From positions 1-21,191 of the forward strand of contig CBDCLR010000001.1 of NCBI GenBank assembly GCA_965218695.1: a stretch of DNA of 21,191 nt, in the 5' to 3' direction. The first letter of the stretch is position 1, and each line of letters begins with the position of its first letter. Below the pieces are notes generated by a model, which ran no database searches, was not told where the DNA came from, and was given only the letters and a program-made list of their open reading frames with translations. A program made the position numbers and the translations under genes. Positions 4,049 through 21,191 of the stretch are shown here, piece after piece. Source of the DNA: Nitrosopumilus sp. Lineage in GTDB: Archaea > Thermoproteota > Nitrososphaeria > Nitrososphaerales > Nitrosopumilaceae.

Positions 4049-4122
4049 GGGTCTGTAGCGCAGCCAGGTAGCGCACCGGACTTTTAATCCGGCTGTCGTG
4101 GGTTCGAATCCCATCAGACTCA
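4049..4122 (+). tRNA. tRNA-Lys (anticodon TTT), intronless, CCA not encoded
   Basis: Cloverleaf: acceptor GGGTCTG/CAGACTC, D stem GCGC/GCGC, anticodon stem CCGGA/TCCGG with loop CTTTTAA (TTT at 4083-4085), T arm GTGGG-TTCGAAT-CCCAT. Confidence 0.97.
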
Positions 4123-7965: not shown

Positions 7966-10900
7966 GTGAACACATGTTACGTGGTTTTACCGTCTTTATT
8001 GAAAAGAGCTAGCTATCTCTGCATTCTTACAGTATTGATTTTTGTCCTTGTCGCCGTACCCATGCCTTCTGAGTCTCAAGTGGATGCGGATCCTTTTGTC
8101 ACCACTTGGCGGACAACGACGCCCGGCGAGTCGATAACCATACCTGTAGGTGGCGCCAGAGGCGCGTACACAGTCGACTGGGGCGACGGAACCATATCTG
8201 CTGATGTCTCAGGGGATCAGACCCATGCGTATGCCGAACCCGGAGATCATCAGGTCAGCATATCAGGCGACTTTACCCGCATCCTTCTAAACGGCATGCC
8301 AAACGCGGAAAAACTGCTTTCCATAGATCAATGGGGTGCGATACAGTGGGCGTCAATGAGCTCGTCATTTAGCGGTGCGTCAAATATGGTATATAGTGCA
8401 ACCGATACACCAGATCTCTCTGCTGTGCGCCACATGAGCTATATGTTCCACGATGCCTCCTCCTTTGACGGCGACATCTCCGGCTGGGACACCTCGTCGG
8501 TGACTGACATGAGCGGCATGTTTACCTTCGCCTCCTTTGACGGCGACATCTCCGGCTGGGACACCTCGTCTGTAAGCAACATGCGCTGGATGTTCCACGG
8601 TGCCGATTCATTCAACGGCGACATCTCCGGCTGGGACACCTCGTCTGTGACTGACATGTGGATGATGTTTGCCGAAGCGTCCTCCTTTGACGGCGACCTC
8701 TCCGGCTGGGACACCTCGTCGGTGACCACCATGTATAGGATGTTCCACGGTGCCTCATCATTCAACGGCGACATCTCCGGCTGGGACACCTCGTCTGCGA
8801 ATGACATGTATTGGATGTTCATGGGTGCCTCATCATTCAACGGCGACCTCTCCGGCTGGGACACCTCGTTGCTGACTGACATGAGCTGGATGTTCGGTGA
8901 TGCCACTTCCTTTGACGGCGACCTCTCCGGCTGGGACACCTCGTCTGTGACTGACATGTCGCTGATGTTTGAAAACGCCACATCATTCAACGGCGACCTC
9001 TCCGGCTGGGACACCTCGTCTGTGACTGACATGTCTCGGATATTCCAAGGCGCCACATCATTCAACGGCGACCTCTCCGGCTGGGACACCTCGTCTGTGA
9101 CTGACATGACCAACATGTTCTACAGCGCCGCTTCCTTTGACGGCGACATCTCCGGCTGGGACACCTCGTCTGTGACTGACATGGGCAGCATGTTTTTAGG
9201 TGCCACATCATTCAACGGCGACCTCTCCGGCTGGGACACCCCGTCTGTGACTGACATGACCAACATGTTCTACAGCGCCGCTTCCTTTGACGGCGACATC
9301 TCCGGCTGGGACACCTCGTCTGTGACTGACATGAGCCAGATGTTTCGATTTACCGCCTCCTTCAACGCCGACATCGCCGGCTGGGACGTATCGTCTGCAA
9401 CCAACATGGAACGTATGCTCTCTAGCGCCCTCGAGTTCGACCAGAACTTGGGGAAATGGTACATAGTGCTTAAGGATCCTGCAACTGACCCTTCCACTGG
9501 AATAATCGGAAACATTGCCGCGCAGAATTCGTACCTTGACGGGCAGGATCCCACATACGGCATAGGCTCCGGCGAGGGCTCCGAGTTCTTCGAGATGGAC
9601 GGATCCACCCTAAAGCTAAGCGGATCCCCGACTGACCCGATCCACACAGTCACCATAACCGCTACTGGCGATATCTTTGGCACCGACAACTCCCGCACAC
9701 TTGACATATTCGTGGACGGCACGCCCGTGCCCCCGGTTCCAGCCGACGGCGATCCGTTCGTCACCACTTGGCGCACCACATCCCCCGGCGAGTCGATAAC
9801 CGTCCCGGTCGGCGGCGCCACGGACACGTACACGGTGGACTGGGGAGATGGGACCATATCCGAGGATGTTTCTGGGGATCAGACCCACGCGTATTCCGCT
9901 GCCGGAGATCACACGGTCAGCATATCCGGCGACTTTACAAGGATTTATCTAAACGGCAAGCAGCCCAACGCGGACAGGCTGCAGTCGATAGACAAGTGGG
10001 GCGACGCACGGTGGATCTCAATGAACTCGGCGTTCAGGGGCGCGACAAGCATGGCGTACGCTGCAGGCGACGCACCCGATCTCTCTGCCGTGACAGACAT
10101 GAGCAGGATGTTTGATGGCGTCTCATCATTCAACGGCGACGTCTCCGGGTGGGACACCTCGTCGGTGACTAACATGCTGGGGATATTTGAAGACACGTCC
10201 GACTTTAGCGGCGACGTCTCCGGGTGGGACACCTCGTCGGTCACCGACATGTCACAGATGTTTGATGGCGCCTCCGGGTTTAGCGGCAACGTCTCCGGGT
10301 GGGACACCTCGTCGGTCACAGACATGTCGGGGATGTTTGCCAGTGCCAACTCGTTCAACGGCGACGTCTCCGGGTGGGACACCTCGTCGGTCACCGATAT
10401 GCATGACATGTTTGCAGGTGTATCCTCCTTCAACGCGGACATATCCGGGTGGGACACCTCGTCGGTCACAGACATGCACGGCATGTTCCAAGATGCAGAC
10501 TCTTTTGACGGCGACATCTCGGATTGGGACGTCTCGTCGGTCACTGACATGGAGTACATGTTTGCGGGTGCATCCTCCTTCAACGCGGACATATCCGGGT
10601 GGGACGTCTCGTCGGTCACCGACATGGAGTACATGTTTGCGGGTGCATCCTCCTTCAACGCGGACATATCCGGGTGGGACGTCTCGTCTGTCACCGGCAT
10701 GCGTGAGATGTTTGCGGTTGCATCCTCCTTCAACGCGGACATATCCGTGTGGGATGTCTCGTCGGTCACCGACATGGAGTATATGTTCAACGGAGCCGAC
10801 GAGTTCGACCAGAACCTGGGAAAATGGTACATAGTGCTTGAGGATCCCGCAGCCGATCCCGCCGCCTCCGGAACAATCGGAAGCATCGTCGCGCAGAATT

Positions 10901-12867
10901 CGTACCTTGACGGGCAGGATCCCACGTACGGCATAGGCTCCGGCGTGGGCTCCGAGTTCTTCGAGATGGACGGATCCACCCTAAAGCTAAGCGGATCCCC
11001 GACTGATCCGATCCAAACCGTCAACATAACCGCCGCCGGAAGAATCTTCGGCACCGACAACTTCCGCATGCTTGACATATCCGTGGACGGCACGCCCGTG
11101 CCCCCGGTTCCCGCCGACGGCGATCCATTCGTCACCACTTGGCTCACCACGTCACCCGGCGAGTCGATAACCATCCCCTTCAGGGGAGCTTCAGGCATAT
11201 ACTCGATAGACTGGGGCGACGGACGCGTGTCTGCCAACATCACAGGAGACCAGACACACGCGTATGATGGCGCTGGAACGCATACGGTCAGCATATCCGG
11301 CGACTTTACGAGAATTTACCTTGCAGGCCGGGAGTCCAACGCGCAAAAACTGCAGTCGATAGAACAGTGGGGCAGCATCCAGTGGAAGTCCATGAACTCA
11401 GCGTTCAGGGGCGCCTCAAACATGGCATATAACGCGACTGACGCCCCCGATCTCTCGCGCGTCACTGACATGGAGCGCATGTTTGCAGGAGCGTCCTCCC
11501 TTGACGGCGACCTCTCGAATTGGGACGTCTCCGGCGTGAGGGACATGTCGTACCTGTTCCTGGACGCGACCTCGTTTGACTCTGACCTGTCCGACTGGGA
11601 CGTCTCGCGCGTCACCGACATGGAGCGCATGTTTGCAGGAGCGTCCTCCCTTGACGGCGACCTCTCGAATTGGGACGTCTCCGGCGTGAGGGACATGTCG
11701 TACCTGTTCCTGGACGCGACCTCGTTTGACTCTGACCTGTCCGACTGGGACGTCTCGCGCGTCACCGACATGGACGGAATGTTCTGGAACGCGACCTCGT
11801 TTGACTCTGACCTGTCCGACTGGGATGTCTCAAGCGTGACGGACATGTATGGCATGTTCGCAAGCGCCTCCTCCTTTGACTCTGACCTGTCCGACTGGGA
11901 CGTCTCGCGCGTCACCGACATGCACGCCATGTTCAACCGCGCCTCCTCCTTTGACTCTGACCTGTCCGACTGGGACGTCTCGCGCGTCACCGACATGTAC
12001 GCCATGTTCGCACTCGCCAGCTCGTTTGACGGCGACGTCTCAGACTGGGACGTCTCAAGCGTGACGGACATGGCAGACATGTTCAGGTCGACACAATTCT
12101 TCAACAGCGACATCTCCGGATGGAACATCTCGGATACGACACGCATAACTACTATGCTCTACCGCGCCGAAGCGTTTGACCAAAACCTGGGCCCGTGGTA
12201 CATAGTACTGGACGACGATGCCATCCAAGGCAGCGACGTGCCTGGCACAGTCGGGAGCATCTCCACGCGAAACCCGCACTTGGACAGCCAGAACCCCGAG
12301 TATGGCATAGGCCCTGGAGGGGACTCGGACTACTTTGAGATAAGCGGCAACGTCCTCAGCATGTTATCGGTACCGGACGGGGATGCTGGACCGTACACGG
12401 TGGACATAACATCTACGGGAGACTATGGCACGGACAACTCCCGCACCTATGAGATAACCGTGATTTCATCCGACATCGTCTCTCTTAATTCTACAGTTGA
12501 ACCGGAGCCTCGCACTGCCGCAGACGCGCAAGCTGAACCGGAGCCTCGCACTGCCGCAGACGCGCAAGCTGAACCGGAGCCTCGCACTGCCGCAGACGCG
12601 CAAGCTGAACCGGAGCCTCGCACTGCCGCAGACGCGCAAGCTGAACCGGAGCCTCGCACTGCCGCAGACGCGCAAGCTGAACCGGAGCCTCGCACTGCCG
12701 CAGACGCGCAAGCTGAACCGGAGCCGATGCCGGATCCAAACCAGCCGTCGATTTGCGAGATGGGAACCGAACTGGTAAACGGCACGTGCGAGCTAATCCA
12801 ACAAGATCAGGATATATTCGGCATGATTAAGGGATGGTTTGAGTCCTTGTTCGGCGTGTTCGTCTAG
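7966..12867 (+). CDS. Large DUF285/BspA-type 25-residue repeat surface protein with three PKD-like + repeat + cadherin-like modules
   Basis: 1633 aa. N-terminal hydrophobic segment, three modules starting DPFVTTW..DWGDG, repeats SFxGDxSxWDxSSVTDMxxMF, a Pro/Ala stalk, CEMGTELVNGTC and an amphipathic C-terminal tail. Start codon uncertain. Confidence 0.9.
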   Translation: MNTCYVVLPSLLKRASYLCILTVLIFVLVAVPMPSESQVDADPFVTTWRTTTPGESITIPVGGARGAYTVDWGDGTISADVSGDQTHAYAEPGDHQVSISGDFTRILLNGMPNAEKLLSIDQWGAIQWASMSSSFSGASNMVYSATDTPDLSAVRHMSYMFHDASSFDGDISGWDTSSVTDMSGMFTFASFDGDISGWDTSSVSNMRWMFHGADSFNGDISGWDTSSVTDMWMMFAEASSFDGDLSGWDTSSVTTMYRMFHGASSFNGDISGWDTSSANDMYWMFMGASSFNGDLSGWDTSLLTDMSWMFGDATSFDGDLSGWDTSSVTDMSLMFENATSFNGDLSGWDTSSVTDMSRIFQGATSFNGDLSGWDTSSVTDMTNMFYSAASFDGDISGWDTSSVTDMGSMFLGATSFNGDLSGWDTPSVTDMTNMFYSAASFDGDISGWDTSSVTDMSQMFRFTASFNADIAGWDVSSATNMERMLSSALEFDQNLGKWYIVLKDPATDPSTGIIGNIAAQNSYLDGQDPTYGIGSGEGSEFFEMDGSTLKLSGSPTDPIHTVTITATGDIFGTDNSRTLDIFVDGTPVPPVPADGDPFVTTWRTTSPGESITVPVGGATDTYTVDWGDGTISEDVSGDQTHAYSAAGDHTVSISGDFTRIYLNGKQPNADRLQSIDKWGDARWISMNSAFRGATSMAYAAGDAPDLSAVTDMSRMFDGVSSFNGDVSGWDTSSVTNMLGIFEDTSDFSGDVSGWDTSSVTDMSQMFDGASGFSGNVSGWDTSSVTDMSGMFASANSFNGDVSGWDTSSVTDMHDMFAGVSSFNADISGWDTSSVTDMHGMFQDADSFDGDISDWDVSSVTDMEYMFAGASSFNADISGWDVSSVTDMEYMFAGASSFNADISGWDVSSVTGMREMFAVASSFNADISVWDVSSVTDMEYMFNGADEFDQNLGKWYIVLEDPAADPAASGTIGSIVAQNSYLDGQDPTYGIGSGVGSEFFEMDGSTLKLSGSPTDPIQTVNITAAGRIFGTDNFRMLDISVDGTPVPPVPADGDPFVTTWLTTSPGESITIPFRGASGIYSIDWGDGRVSANITGDQTHAYDGAGTHTVSISGDFTRIYLAGRESNAQKLQSIEQWGSIQWKSMNSAFRGASNMAYNATDAPDLSRVTDMERMFAGASSLDGDLSNWDVSGVRDMSYLFLDATSFDSDLSDWDVSRVTDMERMFAGASSLDGDLSNWDVSGVRDMSYLFLDATSFDSDLSDWDVSRVTDMDGMFWNATSFDSDLSDWDVSSVTDMYGMFASASSFDSDLSDWDVSRVTDMHAMFNRASSFDSDLSDWDVSRVTDMYAMFALASSFDGDVSDWDVSSVTDMADMFRSTQFFNSDISGWNISDTTRITTMLYRAEAFDQNLGPWYIVLDDDAIQGSDVPGTVGSISTRNPHLDSQNPEYGIGPGGDSDYFEISGNVLSMLSVPDGDAGPYTVDITSTGDYGTDNSRTYEITVISSDIVSLNSTVEPEPRTAADAQAEPEPRTAADAQAEPEPRTAADAQAEPEPRTAADAQAEPEPRTAADAQAEPEPRTAADAQAEPEPMPDPNQPSICEMGTELVNGTCELIQQDQDIFGMIKGWFESLFGVFV
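8434..9459 (+). repeat. Coding 75-bp repeat array 1 (13 units plus cap)
   Basis: Constant block GGCGAC(A/C)TCTCCGGCTGGGACACCTCGTC(T/G)GTGACTGACATG alternating with about 30 variable nt. One unit is 72 bp. Confidence 0.9.
10099..10827 (+). repeat. Coding 75-bp repeat array 2 (9 units plus cap)
   Basis: Constant block TCCGGGTGGGAC(ACC/GTC)TCGTCGGTCACNGACATG. Confidence 0.9.
11470..12198 (+). repeat. Coding 75-bp repeat array 3 (9 units plus cap)
   Basis: Constant block TCTGACCTGTCCGACTGGGACGTCTCGCGCGTCACCGACATG. The first two units are duplicated as a 150-bp block. Confidence 0.9.
12499..12725 (+). repeat. Perfect 36-bp tandem repeat x6.3 encoding EPEPRTAADAQA
   Basis: GAACCGGAGCCTCGCACTGCCGCAGACGCGCAAGCT in six identical copies plus 11 nt. 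Confidence 0.97.
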
Positions 12868-12933
12868 TCACGCCATAACTGTGTGATTTTCCAGAGTCAT
12901 ATTTGAATGGTCCAAGGCATGTAATGGGCTAGC

Positions 12934-13091
12934 TATACTGACGCGAAAAAGTTTTTGAGCAGACACCATACAGCCGAAAAGTTTGCAGATCAGATCTCAT
13001 TTCATGAAGGCATGGACGACACTAAACTGGAAGAACTCGAAAAGGCGTGCAAAAAAGACCATAAGGTTCGGGCTAGATTGGTTGCCGTCCG
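12934..13091 (+). pseudogene. IS630-family left end and transposase N-terminal fragment
   Basis: TATACTGACGCGAAAAAG resembles the MITE left TIR at 1299. MDDTKLEELEKACKKDHKVRARLVAVR breaks off where the convergent ATPase ORF ends. Confidence 0.6.
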
Positions 13092-14474
13092 TCATGACGC
13101 GCCCGGCATGGTATCGTCCAACGCCAAACGGAGCAATCCGGCAAACCCGTCCGCGTCGTACCCGGCATGTCCAGCAATGGAGCGCCCCATCACCTCAAAG
13201 TCGGCCATCCTGGTGGACGGCCGGACTCCCGGGGAGTCCCCGAAGGCGCGGTGCAGGGTATCGAACATCTCGTGGTACAGGTGCGGCCTCATGGAGTAGA
13301 ATTCGGCTGCCATATTCTCCATGGTCTTCCATCCTTCCACCGGCGGCAGCTCGTACCGGACAATCTTGCCTGCCAGCGAATGCAGCTGCGCGGGCTTGCC
13401 TTCCGGCACTGCCATTATGAGTCTGACGTTGCCGAATGACGCCGGATGTTTCTGCCCGTCTGGAATTATCGCCAGCCCCTCCAGCGCCCCTGACAGAGTG
13501 TCGGCCGCCTCCCTGCTCATCTGCCGCACGTTGTCAAATGATGCGACCGGCGATCCTGCCAGGATCTTGCGCAGGCAGTCTGCGGACTTTGGCAACACGG
13601 CGGAGGCGTGCTCTAACCCGACCGGATCCACCAACTCCCTTGCCAAGCGGGCGGCCGCCGTCTTGCCGGAGCCGGGCGGGCCGGAGAACAGCATCGCCGG
13701 GGTTTGGTGGTGCATGCAGAGCATGTGGCAGATGTGCGCGCAGAAGAGGGGGCGCTGCCACTCCTGCACGCGCAGCAGGGTACAAAACGCCTCCAGCCAC
13801 CCCTCGCCTCCCCGCTCGGGCTCGGGCATTACATTCCCGTGCCGCTCGATTACCACCTTCATATCCGGGGAGTACGGCACGGCCGGTCCGTGCTTTTCGG
13901 CGGATATCCCGTACAGGCGGCGGGGACGCCCGCCCAGATCCACCCACATGGTATGGCCGTCAAAGCCGGCGCGCTTCCAGACGCGATCCACGCGCAGCCC
14001 GTCGAACTTGGCCCGCAGCCGGTGCGCGGCCAGCGCTGTTCCCATGTAATAGTCGGATATTGCCACGCCGTACTTTCTAAAGTACTCGGCCTGGATCAGC
14101 TCTGCCACCATGCCATCGTCGTGCCGGAACAGATCCCACGAGCCGCCGCTCTTCACCCAGAAGAACGCCCCGCCTGGGCCGCTCTCCGTGCACGCGTGCC
14201 CGGCGATCATCCCGTCGGTTATGGCCACAATGTGCCCCCTCTCGTCGTCGCTGTCGGACTCGGCGTTCTTGACTGCCTCCAGCGCGCCGAGCCTCTTGAG
14301 ATCCTCGTCATTGGGCTTGCCGGGGCCGGCGATCCTCTCCATTACCTGCCGCATCTCCTTTTCCACCCTCTCGTGGCCCGGCACCAGCGTGTGCCGGGAC
14401 GAGTACCTGCACTCGGACCAGTCAAGCGTGTTCTTTTTGCGGAACTCCCTGCACTTCGTGCACCAGAGGATCAT
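13092..14474 (-). CDS. P-loop ATPase of plasmid/integrative-element primase-associated helicase type
   Basis: 460 aa with Walker A GPPGSGKT, LVDP, Walker B-like SFDNV and RMADF. N-terminal CxxC..C..H motif, no primase domain. The family call is from motif recall. Confidence 0.7.
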   Translation of the reverse strand: MILWCTKCREFRKKNTLDWSECRYSSRHTLVPGHERVEKEMRQVMERIAGPGKPNDEDLKRLGALEAVKNAESDSDDERGHIVAITDGMIAGHACTESGPGGAFFWVKSGGSWDLFRHDDGMVAELIQAEYFRKYGVAISDYYMGTALAAHRLRAKFDGLRVDRVWKRAGFDGHTMWVDLGGRPRRLYGISAEKHGPAVPYSPDMKVVIERHGNVMPEPERGGEGWLEAFCTLLRVQEWQRPLFCAHICHMLCMHHQTPAMLFSGPPGSGKTAAARLARELVDPVGLEHASAVLPKSADCLRKILAGSPVASFDNVRQMSREAADTLSGALEGLAIIPDGQKHPASFGNVRLIMAVPEGKPAQLHSLAGKIVRYELPPVEGWKTMENMAAEFYSMRPHLYHEMFDTLHRAFGDSPGVRPSTRMADFEVMGRSIAGHAGYDADGFAGLLRLALDDTMPGAS

Positions 14475-14784
14475 GGCGTCGCCCCCGCGATCTTTCCGCC
14501 GGCATCCACCTGGAATGGCCCCCGACGTTCTGCCTAGCGCGGATGCGTGCAGTCTGCGTCATTCCCGCGCAATGCGTCCTGACTGCCACGTCGGCAAGGG
14601 CCTGCGCCTCCTCGCACGCCTCCAGCGCCTCGAATTGCCTACCGAGCTTGTGGAGTGCTATCCCGACCAGCGCACGCGGCTCCAGGCCGCAATTCTTGTG
14701 CTTGGCGATCCTCCTGAAGATCCGGAGAGCCTTTTCGTGCTCTCCCCTCCGGTACGGTTCGATGCCCGCGTTGATGCCCGACAC
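14422..14784 (-). pseudogene. TPR-like ORF, 5' end apparently cut off by the inverted repeat
   Basis: AGIEPYRRGEHEKALRIF and LVGIALHKLGRQFEALEACEEA fit a TPR pattern. The only start (TTG 14796) lies inside the repeat. Confidence 0.5.
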
Positions 14785-15184
14785 TACACTGTTCAATCTT
14801 CGGGGTTTTTCACCATTTTCACGGGGGCGTTCAATTAGGGCGCCGGGGTGTTAAGTTAGGGAGCTGGCCAGATCATGCCCGCACGCCGTTCAATCTTTAG
14901 GGGGTTTCACTTTCAGGCAACCGTTCAATTAGGGCGCTGGAGTGTTAAGTTAGGGCGCTGGCGGACCACTGTAAAGCGTCGGCATATGGCAGACGGCGCG
15001 GCATTTGGGCCGGAACCGGCTCGCATGGAGGCGGCACGACTGCCGAGTCGCGGCAGTCGGCTCCATGTGCGGTTGTCGCCCCGCTGAAGGGACGGCCACG
15101 CAGAACCGTGCCGGGACAGGTTACCGTCGGTTCTCGAACCAGCTACAGGTAGGCGGTATAGCGCCCGCTATCGTTAAAATTTCG
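14783..15184. repeat. Long inverted repeat, left copy, with internal duplication 14791-14867 / 14888-14961
   Basis: Aligns with the reverse complement of 16515-16818 from ACTACACTGTTCAATCTTCGGGGTTTTTC to CGTTAAAATTTCG, roughly 80% identical by manual alignment. Confidence 0.92.
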
Positions 15185-15486
15185 CATTAGGTCTTACCAC
15201 CCCCGGCTGGCGCATGCGCCGACGGAGGCAAGCCCGTCATCACACTCAGGCGCCTCATGTCTCGCTTTATCCTGATCATAGCGATGTCAGTACTTTCCTC
15301 GCGGTATTCTCACTATCTGGAATTTGTCGGGTGGTACAGTTCCGACTACTGTAATTAGCCATAGGGAATAGCGCTGTCAACACCATGCACTGAATTGATT
15401 CCGTCACATGGTCTCTTTATTCTGTCTAGTTTATTTATCTGCACGATTCCAGATGAATTAAACTCATCTTTTGTTCCCAGGTCGGA

Positions 15487-16077
15487 TCAAAAGTAGTCCC
15501 ACTGCACTAATTTTTCATAGGTTGTTGGCTTTAGACATAATGGCTTTGTGCCATCCTTGATGTACAAATCACGTCCCTCGTTGCAAGCTATTGAAGTAAT
15601 GAATACGCCATCGCGCAGCTGCTTGTATGGGCTATCGAATGGAGGCTCTACAAATACGCTTCGATAACAATCTTCTGCTACCGGTAAGCTTACAATATTG
15701 GGATTGCTGTCAGTATGATATGTATAAAGCATTTTGATCGTAATGGAGTTTTGAGTTGAAATGTCATAATGGACAAAACATTCATCCTCGGTTGTGATCG
15801 AATGTAACTCCTTATTGTCCCCTATCAATATCATGTTATGGGTTGGCATATCTTGTGTCGTTAATAATGGAAATGATTTGGGAATGCTTACAAAAAATGT
15901 CGTGTCTACATTTGATCTCATTGTAAAAAATAGGCCTTCTTCTGGAACATAAGTATAGTTTTCAATAACATTTTGTGTTGTGTGGATTTGAAAGATTTTA
16001 TCAGTAGTATCCGGTGTGGATTCTCCGATCCCCGGAATTAAAATAATAGATAAAAAAATAAAAAGATGTTCGATCAT
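15487..16077 (-). CDS. Secreted hypothetical protein with thaumarchaeal-type C-terminal Cys motif
   Basis: Signal-like N-terminus and C-terminal SPYKQLRDGV...IACNEGRDLYIK...PLCLKPTTYEKL. Low GC. Confidence 0.8.
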   Translation of the reverse strand: MIEHLFIFLSIILIPGIGESTPDTTDKIFQIHTTQNVIENYTYVPEEGLFFTMRSNVDTTFFVSIPKSFPLLTTQDMPTHNMILIGDNKELHSITTEDECFVHYDISTQNSITIKMLYTYHTDSNPNIVSLPVAEDCYRSVFVEPPFDSPYKQLRDGVFITSIACNEGRDLYIKDGTKPLCLKPTTYEKLVQWDYF

Positions 16078-16451
16078 TGTAGATTCAACTGATTGGCCAC
16101 AAAGTCTTGCGGGTGATAGATTCCATACTGCCCACCATTAGCTTGTGATATCAGCATGCCATACAGATATACATTATTAGAACGCGTGCTTGGAAGCCCG
16201 TGGATCTGGCCTGCGTCGCTCCCAAGCACGATCTCGGAAAGCAGCTTCTTTGGAACCGGTATCAGATCAAGTTTTTCCGCATATCTGTCCCAGTCCAACC
16301 ATCTTCTGAGCACGTTATTGAGCATGGTGTTTGGTGAGACGTTGAGCCTGGCGGCATCTGATTTGAGCTCTGCCACAACGTGGTCAGGAATGCGAAATGA
16401 GACGGTCTTTGTACCATCCTTCTGCTCAAAGTGGGGCTTTGACTTCAACAT
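16074..16451 (-). CDS. Ribbon-helix-helix (CopG-like) domain protein, probably C-terminally truncated
   Basis: KTVSFRIPDHVVAELKSDAARLNVSPNTMLNNVLRRWLDW fits the RHH pattern. GC drops abruptly near 16190 and the tail looks unrelated. ATGA overlap with the next gene. Confidence 0.7.
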   Translation of the reverse strand: MLKSKPHFEQKDGTKTVSFRIPDHVVAELKSDAARLNVSPNTMLNNVLRRWLDWDRYAEKLDLIPVPKKLLSEIVLGSDAGQIHGLPSTRSNNVYLYGMLISQANGGQYGIYHPQDFVANQLNLQ

Positions 16452-16514
16452 ACTTCATATCTTGATATGCTGTATGTATTAACATTCTCTCAAGGAGTGG
16501 ATGATGGGACTTTA

Positions 16515-16818
16515 CGAAGTTTTAACGGCAGCGGACGCCTGCCGCTGCCCGTGGCCGACCCGAGTGTCGGCCGTAAACTGTCCCGGCGCAGCTCCGTGCG
16601 GCCGCCTCTTCAACGAGGAGGCAACCACATCCGGGGCTGGCTGTCGCGGCTCAGCAGTCGTACCGCCCCCATGCGGGCCGGTTCCGGCCCAAATGCCGCG
16701 CCGTCTGCCATACCGACGCTTTCCAGCGGTCTTCCAGCTCCCTAACTTAACGCCCCGGCGCCCCAATTGAGCACCTTCGTGAAAATGACGAAAAACCCCG
16801 AAGATTGAACAGAGTAGT
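16515..16818. repeat. Long inverted repeat, right copy
   Basis: Ends AAAAACCCCGAAGATTGAACAGAGTAGT and is the reverse-complement homolog of 14783-15184. Confidence 0.92.
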
Positions 16819-19359: not shown

Positions 19360-20331
19360 ATGACAAAGCAATCTAAATCTGATAATCCTAACAGAGGCAA
19401 ACTTCCCGTGATTGGTGTAGTGATTGCCATAGTTGTTGCTGTTGTTGTAATAACATTACTGCTATCTGGCTCATCTGTGTTTGTAGATCCTACTACAAAT
19501 GATGATAACGCAAAATCTAAGGATTCTAAAATAATTGATTGGCGCCATGTTCACGGTTTAGGGTTTGATCCTGATAATCGTTCGATTGTGTATATTGCAA
19601 CCCATGGTGACTTTTACCAAAGTATTGACGGCAAACCGCCAGTAAAAGTAGACAAGATACGTGCTGACTATATGGCATTTAGTGCATCATACGTTTCAGG
19701 GACCCCACTGTATGCAAGCGGTCATCCAGCAACTGGAGGAAATACTGGATTGATTAAAAGTAATGATGGAGGGATTACGTGGGAGCTTGTGTCAAATGTA
19801 ATAGAACCTCCAGTGGATTTTCATGCAATGGCAGTAAGCAACCATAATCCTAAAATTATAATTGGTTTTGATAGTGCAGCAAGAGGCTTATTTAAGACAG
19901 TTGATGGAGGAGAGACATGGGAGTCATTAGTGTATCCAGAGTATGTTTCTGCACTTGCAATATCTCCTGATGAATCACAGCTAATTTTTGCAGGAACTGG
20001 AAAAGGAATATTCAAGTCAGCTGATGGAGGAAAGACATGGATGCTTCTTGATGAATATAATGGAATGGGTGTTTTTGCGTTGGCATTTGATGAAGGGGGC
20101 ACATTGTTTGCATCAGTAGAGACATTTGGAATAGTAAAGTCAGATGACTTGGGGGAGTCATGGGAAGACATGCAGAGAGTTGATCTGACTGTTTTAAGTA
20201 TTGCAGCAGATTCTGAGAATAGCTACTTGTATGTTGGAGGTTATTCTTCTGAAGGATTCCAGCAGGTCTACAAAATTGCGTATGATTTTTCCAGCCATGA
20301 AGTGATTGGAACTAACAAAGGATTAGAGTAA
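19360..20331 (+). CDS. Membrane-anchored BNR/Asp-box beta-propeller protein (F510_1955-like)
   Basis: N-terminal TM helix, motifs HVHGLG, ATHG, ASGHP and DFHAM, and Asp boxes SNDGGITW, TVDGGETW, SADGGKTW, SDDLGESW. Confidence 0.85.
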   Translation: MTKQSKSDNPNRGKLPVIGVVIAIVVAVVVITLLLSGSSVFVDPTTNDDNAKSKDSKIIDWRHVHGLGFDPDNRSIVYIATHGDFYQSIDGKPPVKVDKIRADYMAFSASYVSGTPLYASGHPATGGNTGLIKSNDGGITWELVSNVIEPPVDFHAMAVSNHNPKIIIGFDSAARGLFKTVDGGETWESLVYPEYVSALAISPDESQLIFAGTGKGIFKSADGGKTWMLLDEYNGMGVFALAFDEGGTLFASVETFGIVKSDDLGESWEDMQRVDLTVLSIAADSENSYLYVGGYSSEGFQQVYKIAYDFSSHEVIGTNKGLE

Positions 20332-20479: not shown

Positions 20480-21191
20480 TATGGCACCGATCATAAATTC
20501 GTGCAGAGTGGCGCTGCCTTTCTGTGGGCAAATTTGAGTATGTCCAGCTTGAATCTCACGGTCCGATAATACGTGATGACGGCATTGCACATGTCAGCAA
20601 ACGTCCGATAGTATTCTGAGACGAGCAGGACCTGTTTTCCTCGGCGCCAGCATTCCTGGACCGCGTTGAGGTACGGGGATCCTTTCGGAAGATATATGAT
20701 CTTGATGTTCTTGTTCTCCCGCAACAATTTCTTGACGGATTTTGCGCGGTGCGGGGAGGCTCTGTCCGTCACCACCGCCACCTTCCCGAAGCGCCTCTGC
20801 ATCTCCTTGAGGTATCCGACGAAGGTGGGCGCGTCAAAGCTCTCGTGCGTCCTGAAGAACTGCCTGCCGTCCTTGGCGATGGCCCCGTAGACCACGATCC
20901 TCCTGTGGCTTCCTGTGTACGGCACGACTATCCTCTCTCCGCGCGGAGACCAATATTTGCGCCCAGATATCACATCGTGGATAAAGAAGGCTTCGTCCTC
21001 GTCCACTATGGTAAATCCGTCTCCCTCTAGGCGTGAAACACGCTTGTCGAAGCGATACTGCCAGCTCCGGACGGTCTCCTTGCCGGCCCTGTTGATGTGG
21101 ACCTTCTGCGGGATCTTGGGGGTCAGGCCGTGCCGGCGCATGGCCTTCCTGACGTTTGTTATGTGCAGCCTAGTGCCTGTATCCTCGCGTA
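20480..21191 (-). mobile_element. IS630-family element, 3' part (transposase frame 20491 to beyond 21191)
   Basis: Motifs DEDEA, TDRASPH and LPKGSPYLNAVQECW. The stop codon lies within the TIR at 20480-20506 and the frame stays open to the window edge. Confidence 0.9.

Follow-up and report, generated by a model that had tools for sequence, protein, structure and literature searches.

The window analysed here is the whole of contig CBDCLR010000001.1 (contig C2, 21,191 bp) of the Nitrosopumilus sp. genome G000 (2.63 Mb, 52.8% GC). It contains a long inverted repeat, with the left arm running from ~14783/14785 to 15198 and the right arm from ~16505 to 16816/16818. An earlier note, made from the letters of the window alone, had singled out the repeat as present in two copies sharing a multi-hairpin structure, and had proposed a new non-coding RNA (ncRNA) or single-stranded DNA element. 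The two copies are indeed inverted arms with 76–89% identity by segment, and in the wider context, which that reading missed, they are the long terminal inverted repeats (TIRs) of a mobile element. Each arm is composite, comprising an outer ~90–180 nt that resembles the end of an IS6-family insertion sequence (IS), and an inner hairpin module of ~225 nt. We consider it probable that the module is a recombinase-less, bridge-RNA-like left end (LE) of an IS110-family IS, situated in the arms of an IS6-like cargo element. Judged from its sequence, the module is homologous to an IS110 LE over its 5′ ~90 nt, with a shared LE boundary, a similar length and a modest conservation of pairing.

The complementarity between the arms amounts to 89% for 14783–14867/16734–16818, 78% for 14907–14985/16710–16788 and 77% for 14985–15152/16545–16712, with a mean column identity of 78% over the arm alignment. 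The left arm is longer than the right because of a 94-nt tandem duplication (14814–14868 and 14908–14962). GC content is 62–65% in the arms and 37–48% in the enclosed 1.3 kb. The features of the element are given below, where model R1 is a covariance model built from six module copies, G006 is a Cenarchaeum metagenome-assembled genome (MAG), of another genus than G000, and G371 is a genome of the same genus as G000.

14785–16816, no strand assigned: whole ~2-kb cargo element, with IS6-like tips TACACTGTTCAATC ... GATTGAACAGAGTA and without a target-site duplication
14785–14967, minus strand: left outer arm, comprising the IS6-like tip, the subterminal repeats GTTCAATTAGGG and GTTAAGTTAGGG, and the 94-nt tandem duplication
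14968–15198, minus strand: left ~225-nt IS110-left-end-like module with minus-strand hairpins (model R1, 170 bits at 15025–15189; nhmmer E=5.6e-60) and a sharp 5′ end GGTAAGACC at 15198
15173–15184, minus strand: box resembling a B recognition element and TATA box (BRE/TATA-like), CGAAATTTTAAC, of the left module
15204–15351, plus strand: another IS-end fragment in the cargo, 148 nt, 93% identical to G006:1241139–1241286
15487–16077, minus strand: cargo open reading frame (ORF) of 196 aa, hydrophobic at its N-terminus and matching no family
16074–16451, minus strand: cargo ORF of 125 aa with a weak likeness to Arc/ribbon-helix-helix repressors (PHROG 3887, E=4.8e-4; PHROG 582, E=4.3e-3)
16505–16727, plus strand: right IS110-left-end-like module with a degenerate 5′ end TGGGACTTT (model R1, 164.9 bits at 16510–16672; nhmmer E=2.7e-53)
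16515–16526, plus strand: BRE/TATA-like box CGAAGTTTTAAC of the right module
16527–16572, plus strand: two 5′ stem-loops, H1 (16527–16549) and H2 (16553–16572), homologous to the IS110 left end
16584–16718, plus strand: two long hairpins with internal loops (~16584–16643 and ~16645–16718), without likeness to the G371 leader sequence (z 0.8 for the rest of the module)
16728–16816, plus strand: right outer arm, comprising subterminal repeats and the IS6-like tip

The outer part of each arm is the end of an IS6-like transposable element. Exactly two occurrences of its terminal 21-mer were counted in the window, and 0 in 100 shuffles. In a DNA sequencing run from another study and sample (X5), read depth was 300–2000 over the arms, compared to 16 on the left flank, 109 in the cargo and ~210 on the right flank; five contigs from this run diverge before 14785, and one matches from 16816 onward only. 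The arms are therefore multi-copy, and positions 14785 and 16816 are real junctions. Elsewhere, in several Nitrosopumilaceae genera, tips of the form TAC[A/T]CTGTTCAATC... bound varied segments. In G006 these include a 75-nt mini-palindrome consisting of two such tips and a segment of 8.1 kb. Genome G094 has a tip-bounded segment of 2.35 kb with aldo-keto-reductase-like and epimerase-like genes (named by eye from their translations); its arms comprise 109 nt at 100% and 60 nt at 92% identity, and the 8-bp direct repeat CAAAATAC lies on both sides. On contig C1 of G000, arms of ~140 nt at 79% identity enclose a 19-kb defence island with GmrSD, a type ISP restriction enzyme and AbiV. The tip 20-mer, with at most two mismatches, was found in 29 of 401 genomes of the family (including the unpublished G093), representing 10 of 27 genera; some of these two-mismatch matches are due to chance, as a reversed control pattern gave ~14 matches in 13 genomes.

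IS6-family ends are described as short terminal inverted repeats in which a GG tip is combined with the motifs cTGTt and caaa, accompanied by 8-bp duplications (Varani et al. 2021, PMC7986276). The outer tips in the window resemble these in carrying cTGTt at positions 5–9 and a CAA(T) motif (the CAAT shifted by one position). Further points of resemblance are the 8-bp repeat around the G094 element, the DDE_Tnp_IS240 genes inside two related elements (G094 and G000 C1), and the occurrence of elements end to end, 6–9 nt apart. In contrast to IS6/IS26, the tip is TA or GA instead of GG, the arms span 110–400 nt instead of 14–20 nt, the cargo lies between inverted ends without a transposase, and the true IS6-like IS of G000 has a different TIR (GGTTCTCCTGCAAAC). 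No DDE_Tnp_IS240 transposase was found in the window element, and G006 gave 0 matches. The 8-nt flanks of the window element, CCCGACAC and GTCCAGAA, differ and thus form no 8-bp target-site duplication; such a repeat is also absent from three G006 mini-elements and was present in one of the five elements examined, that of G094. Because of the TA/GA tip, the 8-bp repeat in a single element out of five and the different TIR of the true IS6-like IS, we refer to the ends as IS6-like only. A search for an empty site of the G094 element in 63 congeneric genomes found none, the relatives matching only from 150–265 nt beyond its end, and revealed a second element 8 nt after the first.

The end-to-end arrangement was seen at loci L039, L034, L035 and L023 (3805–3850), where consecutive elements are separated, right tip to left tip, by 6–9 nt. 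The 8-nt spacer between adjacent elements of G094 is the direct repeat. This arrangement recalls a preference described for IS26, namely insertion beside another copy. The C1 island (1566985–1586095; loci L021 and L022), which has related inverted ends, also encodes a DEAD helicase, IS66-family transposases and an IS240-type DDE protein. The IS66 transposases near this element were followed as a lead and dropped, as that IS has its own, unrelated TIR.

The inner module has boundaries of its own. At its 5′ side the boundary is sharp, a T followed by GGTAAGACC, in the left window copy and four other long copies, and the box CGAA(A/G)TTTTAAC lies ~10–12 nt further in. The homology had earlier been thought to begin at this BRE/TATA-like box; the box is present, but the homology in those five copies begins ~10 nt before it, at GGTAAGACC. 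Four long copies in three contexts share the 3′ end ...CGACGCTTTCCAG, and the length of the module is 223–231 nt. Five copies are found in G000, namely the two in the window, an inverted pair on C6 around a different ORF of 282 aa, and one solo copy (C6 13134). About ten are found in G006, comprising one long solo copy (at 119k), three fold-back palindromes of ~138 nt, and further diverged or partial copies; one G006 module is placed 20 nt from an IS6-like tip and reads inward, opposite to the orientation in the window. Given the shared 3′ end and the varied contexts and orientation, the module is therefore a ~225-nt unit independent of the outer arm. Some copies are shortened: C6 28277 at ~130 nt, C6 27330 at ~175 nt, and G006 243801, which is partial.

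The TATA-like box is the most conserved block of the module. A RARRTTTTARC-like box occupies the same place in 11 of 12 aligned arms (the right window copy lacking 2 nt upstream), and AAAACGTTAAC stands in its place in the diverged copy G006 361957. It resembles promoters of G000 tRNA genes, for example ACAAATTTTAACC, 23–28 nt before tRNA-Ser. The only tRNA gene of the contig itself, for tRNA-Lys, is at 4049–4122 (+). Within the 401 family genomes, BLAST detected the module in G000 and G006 only, and weak matches in G018, G043, G071 and G113 were shown by nhmmer not to be modules. A pattern scan for the head motif in one genome per GTDB species returned a single record, a Cenarchaeum sp. MAG which we equate with G006. 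The same type of scan gave two matches in metagenomes, both in unrelated AT-rich DNA, and 0 matches in viral contigs with both patterns.

The three fold-back palindromes of G006 (12930–13067, 31780–31911 and 36714–36839; loci L031 and L032) have the order head-H1-H2-H1′-head′ and are centred on the H2 loop, and two of them directly abut an IS630-like IS. An origin linked to IS630 was considered on the grounds that IS630-like ISs abut some module copies and that two copies share an upstream CTRTAGYGACACG block, and was abandoned as no consistent model emerged. Locus L022 contains, at 2621–2774 (G000 C1 ~1579621–1579774), a unit of ~154 nt that resembles a miniature inverted-repeat transposable element (MITE), with 26-nt inverted ends TATACTGACACGCCAAAGTTCTTGCA; the GACACGCCAAAG block of these ends also precedes the module copies C6 13134 and G006 36714.

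The connection to IS110 came from model R1, which gave six matches of ~76 nt in G371 (E 0.002–0.04). When aligned, these loci share a unit that begins with GTAnGAGAC-GT-TATATCAAATCTTATC and continues with H1- and H2-like hairpins and a further ~130 nt. At four of the six loci, the unit is followed by a Shine-Dalgarno-like AGGAGGTGA..ATG and a frame starting MINIGIDVHKKTC. At locus L064 this frame, split in two, encodes DEDD_Tnp_IS110 (E=2.8e-24) followed by Transposase_20 (E=1.8e-24), and three of the six model matches have a PF01548 match within ~300 nt downstream. The module and the G371 LE are 61–63% identical over ~80 aligned columns, and local alignment of the first 100 nt gave z values of 5.1–13.3 over 1000 shuffles for all four long copies. 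In G371, the LE tip is the counterpart of the module boundary GGTAAGACC. Among the G371 copies, one is inserted in another and starts exactly at GTAAGAGAC; this motif is therefore the tip of the IS and does not belong to the target. All eight arms that keep the GGTAAG tip have a T immediately before it, and the G371 leader has a length of 215 nt, close to that of the module. In two subfamilies of G371, a second occurrence of the LE tip sequence lies ~95 nt into the leader, and the two sites change together (GTAAGAGAC versus GTAGAC), a recurrence that behaves as a donor guide would. The family, which the earlier note did not recognise, can hence be named for the first ~90 nt, including the 5′ end and the TATA-like box, which are homologous to an IS110-family left end. 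A match to a known IS-end family, raised in that note as something that would undo its proposal, was accordingly found for this part and not for the rest of the module.

The fold of the right copy with minimum free energy (MFE) begins with two 5′ stem-loops, after which come two long hairpins interrupted by internal loops, and the consensus supports part of this arrangement. H1 and H2, and equally H4 (16604–16622) and H6 (16675–16690), lie where they had been predicted. H3–H5 had been described as separate hairpins; in the MFE fold, a single long hairpin (~16584–16643) takes in H3, H4 and part of H5, while the second (~16645–16718) carries H6 at its tip. In Rfam, no family matched the arms in a scan of the whole window, and a scan of the 2-kb locus at E≤10 gave xerDC (16.9 bits, cut-off 72.5) and RNaseP-T (12.5 bits, cut-off 60) as its best matches, so that no family reached its gathering score.

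The two window copies differ by 45 transitions and 5 transversions, and the observation that most differences are transitions was thus correct. Counted on the six-copy consensus structure, the differences comprise six compensatory changes, seven single changes kept as G:U and six broken pairs, and not the at least seven compensatory pairs with few broken that had been reported. Over the module columns of all copies, there are 32–54 transitions versus 3–25 transversions per pair of copies, for which deamination of repeats or another constraint are possible causes. The HKY kappa is 11.8, with transition:transversion counts of 215:67 in unpaired and 314:79 in paired columns. Under such a strong transition bias, double hits in a Watson-Crick pair stay paired automatically, and the argument from two copies is therefore weak. 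A held-out test expects ~1.5–1.8 doubles per window copy, and the folding energy is mildly better than that of shuffles (z −1.4 to −2.4, both strands). The bias in the module compared to that in the outer arm gave a Fisher P of 0.14 with one alignment and of 0.015 with another, and the difference is not robust.

The six long copies taken together are more informative. Fifteen of 41 pairs have changed on both sides, compared to 7.9±2.1 in shuffles (0/500) and 2–6 with slid partners. A neutral simulation from a perfectly paired root left 76.7±3.2% of cells paired versus 88.5% observed, and gave 8.2±2.5 doubles versus the 15 observed (P=0.007). When each copy was left out in turn, 200 of 237 pairs were paired versus 175.8±6.6 expected, with per-copy P values of 0.08, 0.35, 0.011, 0.22, 0.18 and 0.027. 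The shuffle, simulation and leave-one-out tests share the same sequences and are not independent. That pairing has been kept beyond neutral expectation is supported by these comparisons, to a modest degree and without preference for a strand. Of the earlier claim that selection acts on structure, some pairing constraint and a plausible RNA role consequently stand, while the two-copy argument behind it reflects mostly transition bias.

In IS110-group elements, long left non-coding ends encode a bridge RNA, which directs the DEDD recombinase to both the donor and the target DNA; a 5′ stem-loop in this RNA is accompanied by two loops, one binding the target and one the donor, and IS621 has the recombination core CT, cores AT, GT and TT having also been tested (Durrant et al. 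2024, PMC11208160). The module resembles such an LE in being a structured non-coding sequence of ~200 nt that starts from the IS tip, in having G371 homologues directly upstream of a DEDD recombinase gene and in the same direction, in its predicted fold of 5′ stem-loop(s) and two hairpins with internal loops, and in the T before its tip, which may be compared to the CT core and to the tested AT, GT and TT cores. It differs in that the window copies are without a recombinase, in that an internal archaeal BRE/TATA-like box is found in place of a sigma-70 promoter rebuilt across the junction of right end and LE, and in that its alignment to a bona fide IS110 LE is confined to the 5′ ~90 nt. A precedent for recombinase-less units is ISPpu9 of the IS110 family, described as shedding MITEPpu9 or orphan ssr9 units that carry a small RNA (sRNA) gene and as having a bridge RNA driven by a native internal promoter (Pares-Guillen et al. 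2025, PMC12288879). Both cases would involve small solo units that bear an sRNA gene without a recombinase, and an internal promoter. MITEPpu9, as described there, is bacterial and carries Ssr9, another sRNA encoded downstream of tnp, whereas the solo unit here would be the LE or bridge-RNA region itself.

In the reading that we favour, the inner ~225 nt would be a recombinase-less copy of the non-coding LE of an IS110-family IS, with an archaeal BRE/TATA-like promoter of its own, placed ~12 nt inward of the LE tip. If the tRNA promoters of G000 are taken as a model, the start site would lie close to the 3′ end of H1, with transcription proceeding through H2 and the two long hairpins, and the resulting transcript would be, or once have been, a bridge RNA. 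A bridge-RNA-like role is plausible and the leading reading for the module, and agrees with the option of a transcript put forward earlier. Both arms may have acquired the module by IS110-style targeting of the repeat end, or by duplication of an arm already carrying it; two targeted insertions and one such duplication are equally possible. The copies could serve in trans the 15 IS110-type recombinase genes present elsewhere in G000, or could move as miniature elements.

Several observations weigh against this interpretation. No IS110 recombinase gene adjoins a module in either G000 or G006: the 15 PF01548 matches of G000 are all on C1 or C4 and its modules on C2 and C6, and none of the seven matches in G006 is next to a module. 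Other IS110 elements of both genomes have leaders of another sequence family. Beyond its first ~90 nt, the ~130 nt that complete the module cannot be aligned to the G371 leader (z −0.4 to 1.6), this leader folds no better than shuffles (z 0.10), and most G371 ‘a’ copies are truncated, at 190–290 nt. The interior of the module has no consistent match of at least 7 nt to its own ends or flanks in the four long copies, a length at which guides of 4–7 nt would escape detection, and no terminator-like site was found at the module. Contigs from RNA libraries (X19 and X20, sponge metatranscriptome runs) cover 16135–16403, inside the 125-aa ORF only; none covers the arms, which, as these are contigs, is weak evidence and is not counted against expression. 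Pairing shows no strand preference, the antisense strand doing as well (z 3.0 versus 3.8), and G:U to A:C counts are 31:20 for sense and 26:22 for antisense. With equal strands, similar energies and similar G:U and A:C counts, the data are therefore compatible with folding of either strand and as either RNA or DNA. IS1111-group elements, members of the IS110/IS1111 family, live in the inverted repeats of other transposons, and such behaviour would place module copies inverted in both arms. On the side of the cargo, by contrast, the flanks of the two window copies are unrelated; this is not what two independent insertions at one repeated target would give, and duplication of an arm is the alternative.

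The strongest alternative, which we nevertheless regard as rather unlikely, is that the module derives from an IS110 LE and is now a dead relic, its hairpins persisting through ancestry, transition bias and perhaps template switching in quasi-palindromes. The transition bias, equally strong in unpaired columns, is in line with this, as are the seven kept versus six broken single changes of the window pair, the G:U and A:C counts in reference-defined stems (181 versus 212), the equivalence of the strands and the missing adjacent recombinase. Several copies are shortened, and the fold-back palindromes of G006 look like replication accidents. A relic would on the other hand not be expected to exceed the neutral expectation in the leave-one-out test and in doubles, nor to keep the TATA-like box in 11 of 12 arms from two genera within sequence that is otherwise 60–77% identical, nor to have the same 3′ end in four long copies from three contexts.

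It is improbable that the hairpins instead have their function in the DNA itself, within the long TIR of the IS6-like element, as sites of transposase binding or bending, or as cruciforms or single-strand hairpins in transposition or replication, with an incidental likeness to IS110. Such a role would account for the presence of the module in both arms and for pairing that is equal on both strands; H1, lying between the TATA-like box and the predicted start, would also be outside the RNA, and the G094 and C1 elements have long arms with other inner parts. These same arms lack the module, however, and the module is found without IS6-like ends and, in one case, reversed beside one, and its 5′ part shares homology with the LE of another family of ISs.

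Extending the IS110 interpretation, the copies may be solo bridge-RNA genes with their own archaeal promoter, kept without a recombinase and working in trans with IS110 recombinases encoded elsewhere, the inverted pair letting a recombinase invert, excise or swap the cargo. We hold this more elaborate scheme to be improbable; if true, it would represent an RNA-guided cassette system within the IS6-like transposon arms of sponge-symbiotic archaea.

A free-standing new family of host ncRNA genes unrelated to mobile elements, as originally proposed, would fit the promoter-like head, the lack of an Rfam family and the partial covariation, and yet is very hard to reconcile with an occurrence in two of 401 family genomes and one record in the scan per GTDB species, with copies that reside in transposon arms and junk-rich islands, and with a multi-copy sequence that has shortened versions and is homologous to an IS end. 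Degenerate protein-coding sequence, which the earlier note had listed as a possible refutation and to which the long open frames on both strands of the GC-rich arms could point, is rejected as the least credible reading: as that note had held, the copies have no frame in common, with stops and frameshifts in H1 from indels that are not multiples of 3, the differences by codon position are 22/15/13, and none of six arm ORFs matches Pfam at E≤1.

Other RNAs and sites associated with mobile elements were compared and set aside. The omega RNA of TnpB/IscB is a structured, outward-reading RNA at a transposon end, but no TnpB-type gene is found beside the module, the 12 PF07282 matches of G000 being confined to C1 and the 16 of G006 lying away from any module. 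RNA-OUT of IS10 is likewise a structured RNA, made from an outward-facing promoter near the transposon end; here, in contrast, there is no overlapping transposase mRNA with which it could pair. Readings as an origin of replication, an integron attC-like site or a parvovirus-ITR-like structure were considered and dropped once the link to IS110 appeared.

Additional features surround the element. The G006 counterpart of the IS-end fragment in the cargo is downstream of a frame that, judged by eye only, looks like a transposase. Immediately to the left of the cargo element, a 124-aa TPR-like ORF (14422–14796, −) has its TTG start within the left tip, and a 460-aa ORF (13092–14474, −) has a Walker-A motif (GPPGSGKT) and a weak likeness to AAA_16 and clamp loaders; the promoter-like box of the left module points toward both. 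Further upstream, a 1633-aa ORF (7966–12867, +) contains three blocks of repeats of ~25 aa (75 nt) with the pattern FxxAxxFNxDISxWDVSxVTxM and ends in six 12-aa AEPEPRTAADAQ repeats (36-nt period), and similar giant repeat proteins adjoin related elements on C6 and in G006. On the other side, a 323-aa ORF (19360–20331, +) is identical at 315 of 323 positions to that at L033 5635–6606, inside the 8.1-kb IS6-like-ended segment of G006, and this identity across genera points to a recent horizontal exchange between sponge symbionts. Inverted repeats of 28 nt (TCTGCACGAATTTATGATCGGCGCTATA) at 1298–1325, 1447–1474 and 20480–20507 match the TIR of G006 IS630-like ISs, and one pair of them spans 19 kb of the contig.

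For annotation, the analysis carries a caution, as ‘compensatory’ pairs between two copies are expected by chance in repeats that differ almost only by transitions. The description of bridge RNAs dates from 2024 and concerns mainly bacterial IS110 elements. The literature that we consulted, in so far as its text was available, contained no description of solo bridge-RNA left ends in archaea, and the available part of a 2019 survey of thaumarchaeal mobile elements does not cover the IS6-like cargo element family. If our interpretation holds, these sponge-symbiotic Nitrosopumilaceae would harbour an archaeal IS110 subfamily whose LE has an internal BRE/TATA-type promoter, and which occurs in addition as recombinase-less solo LE copies, including an inverted pair around cargo genes. 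These solo copies would be nested in the long arms of a second, IS6-like family of cargo elements, and if they are expressed, the action of a bridge RNA apart from its recombinase gene would become testable.

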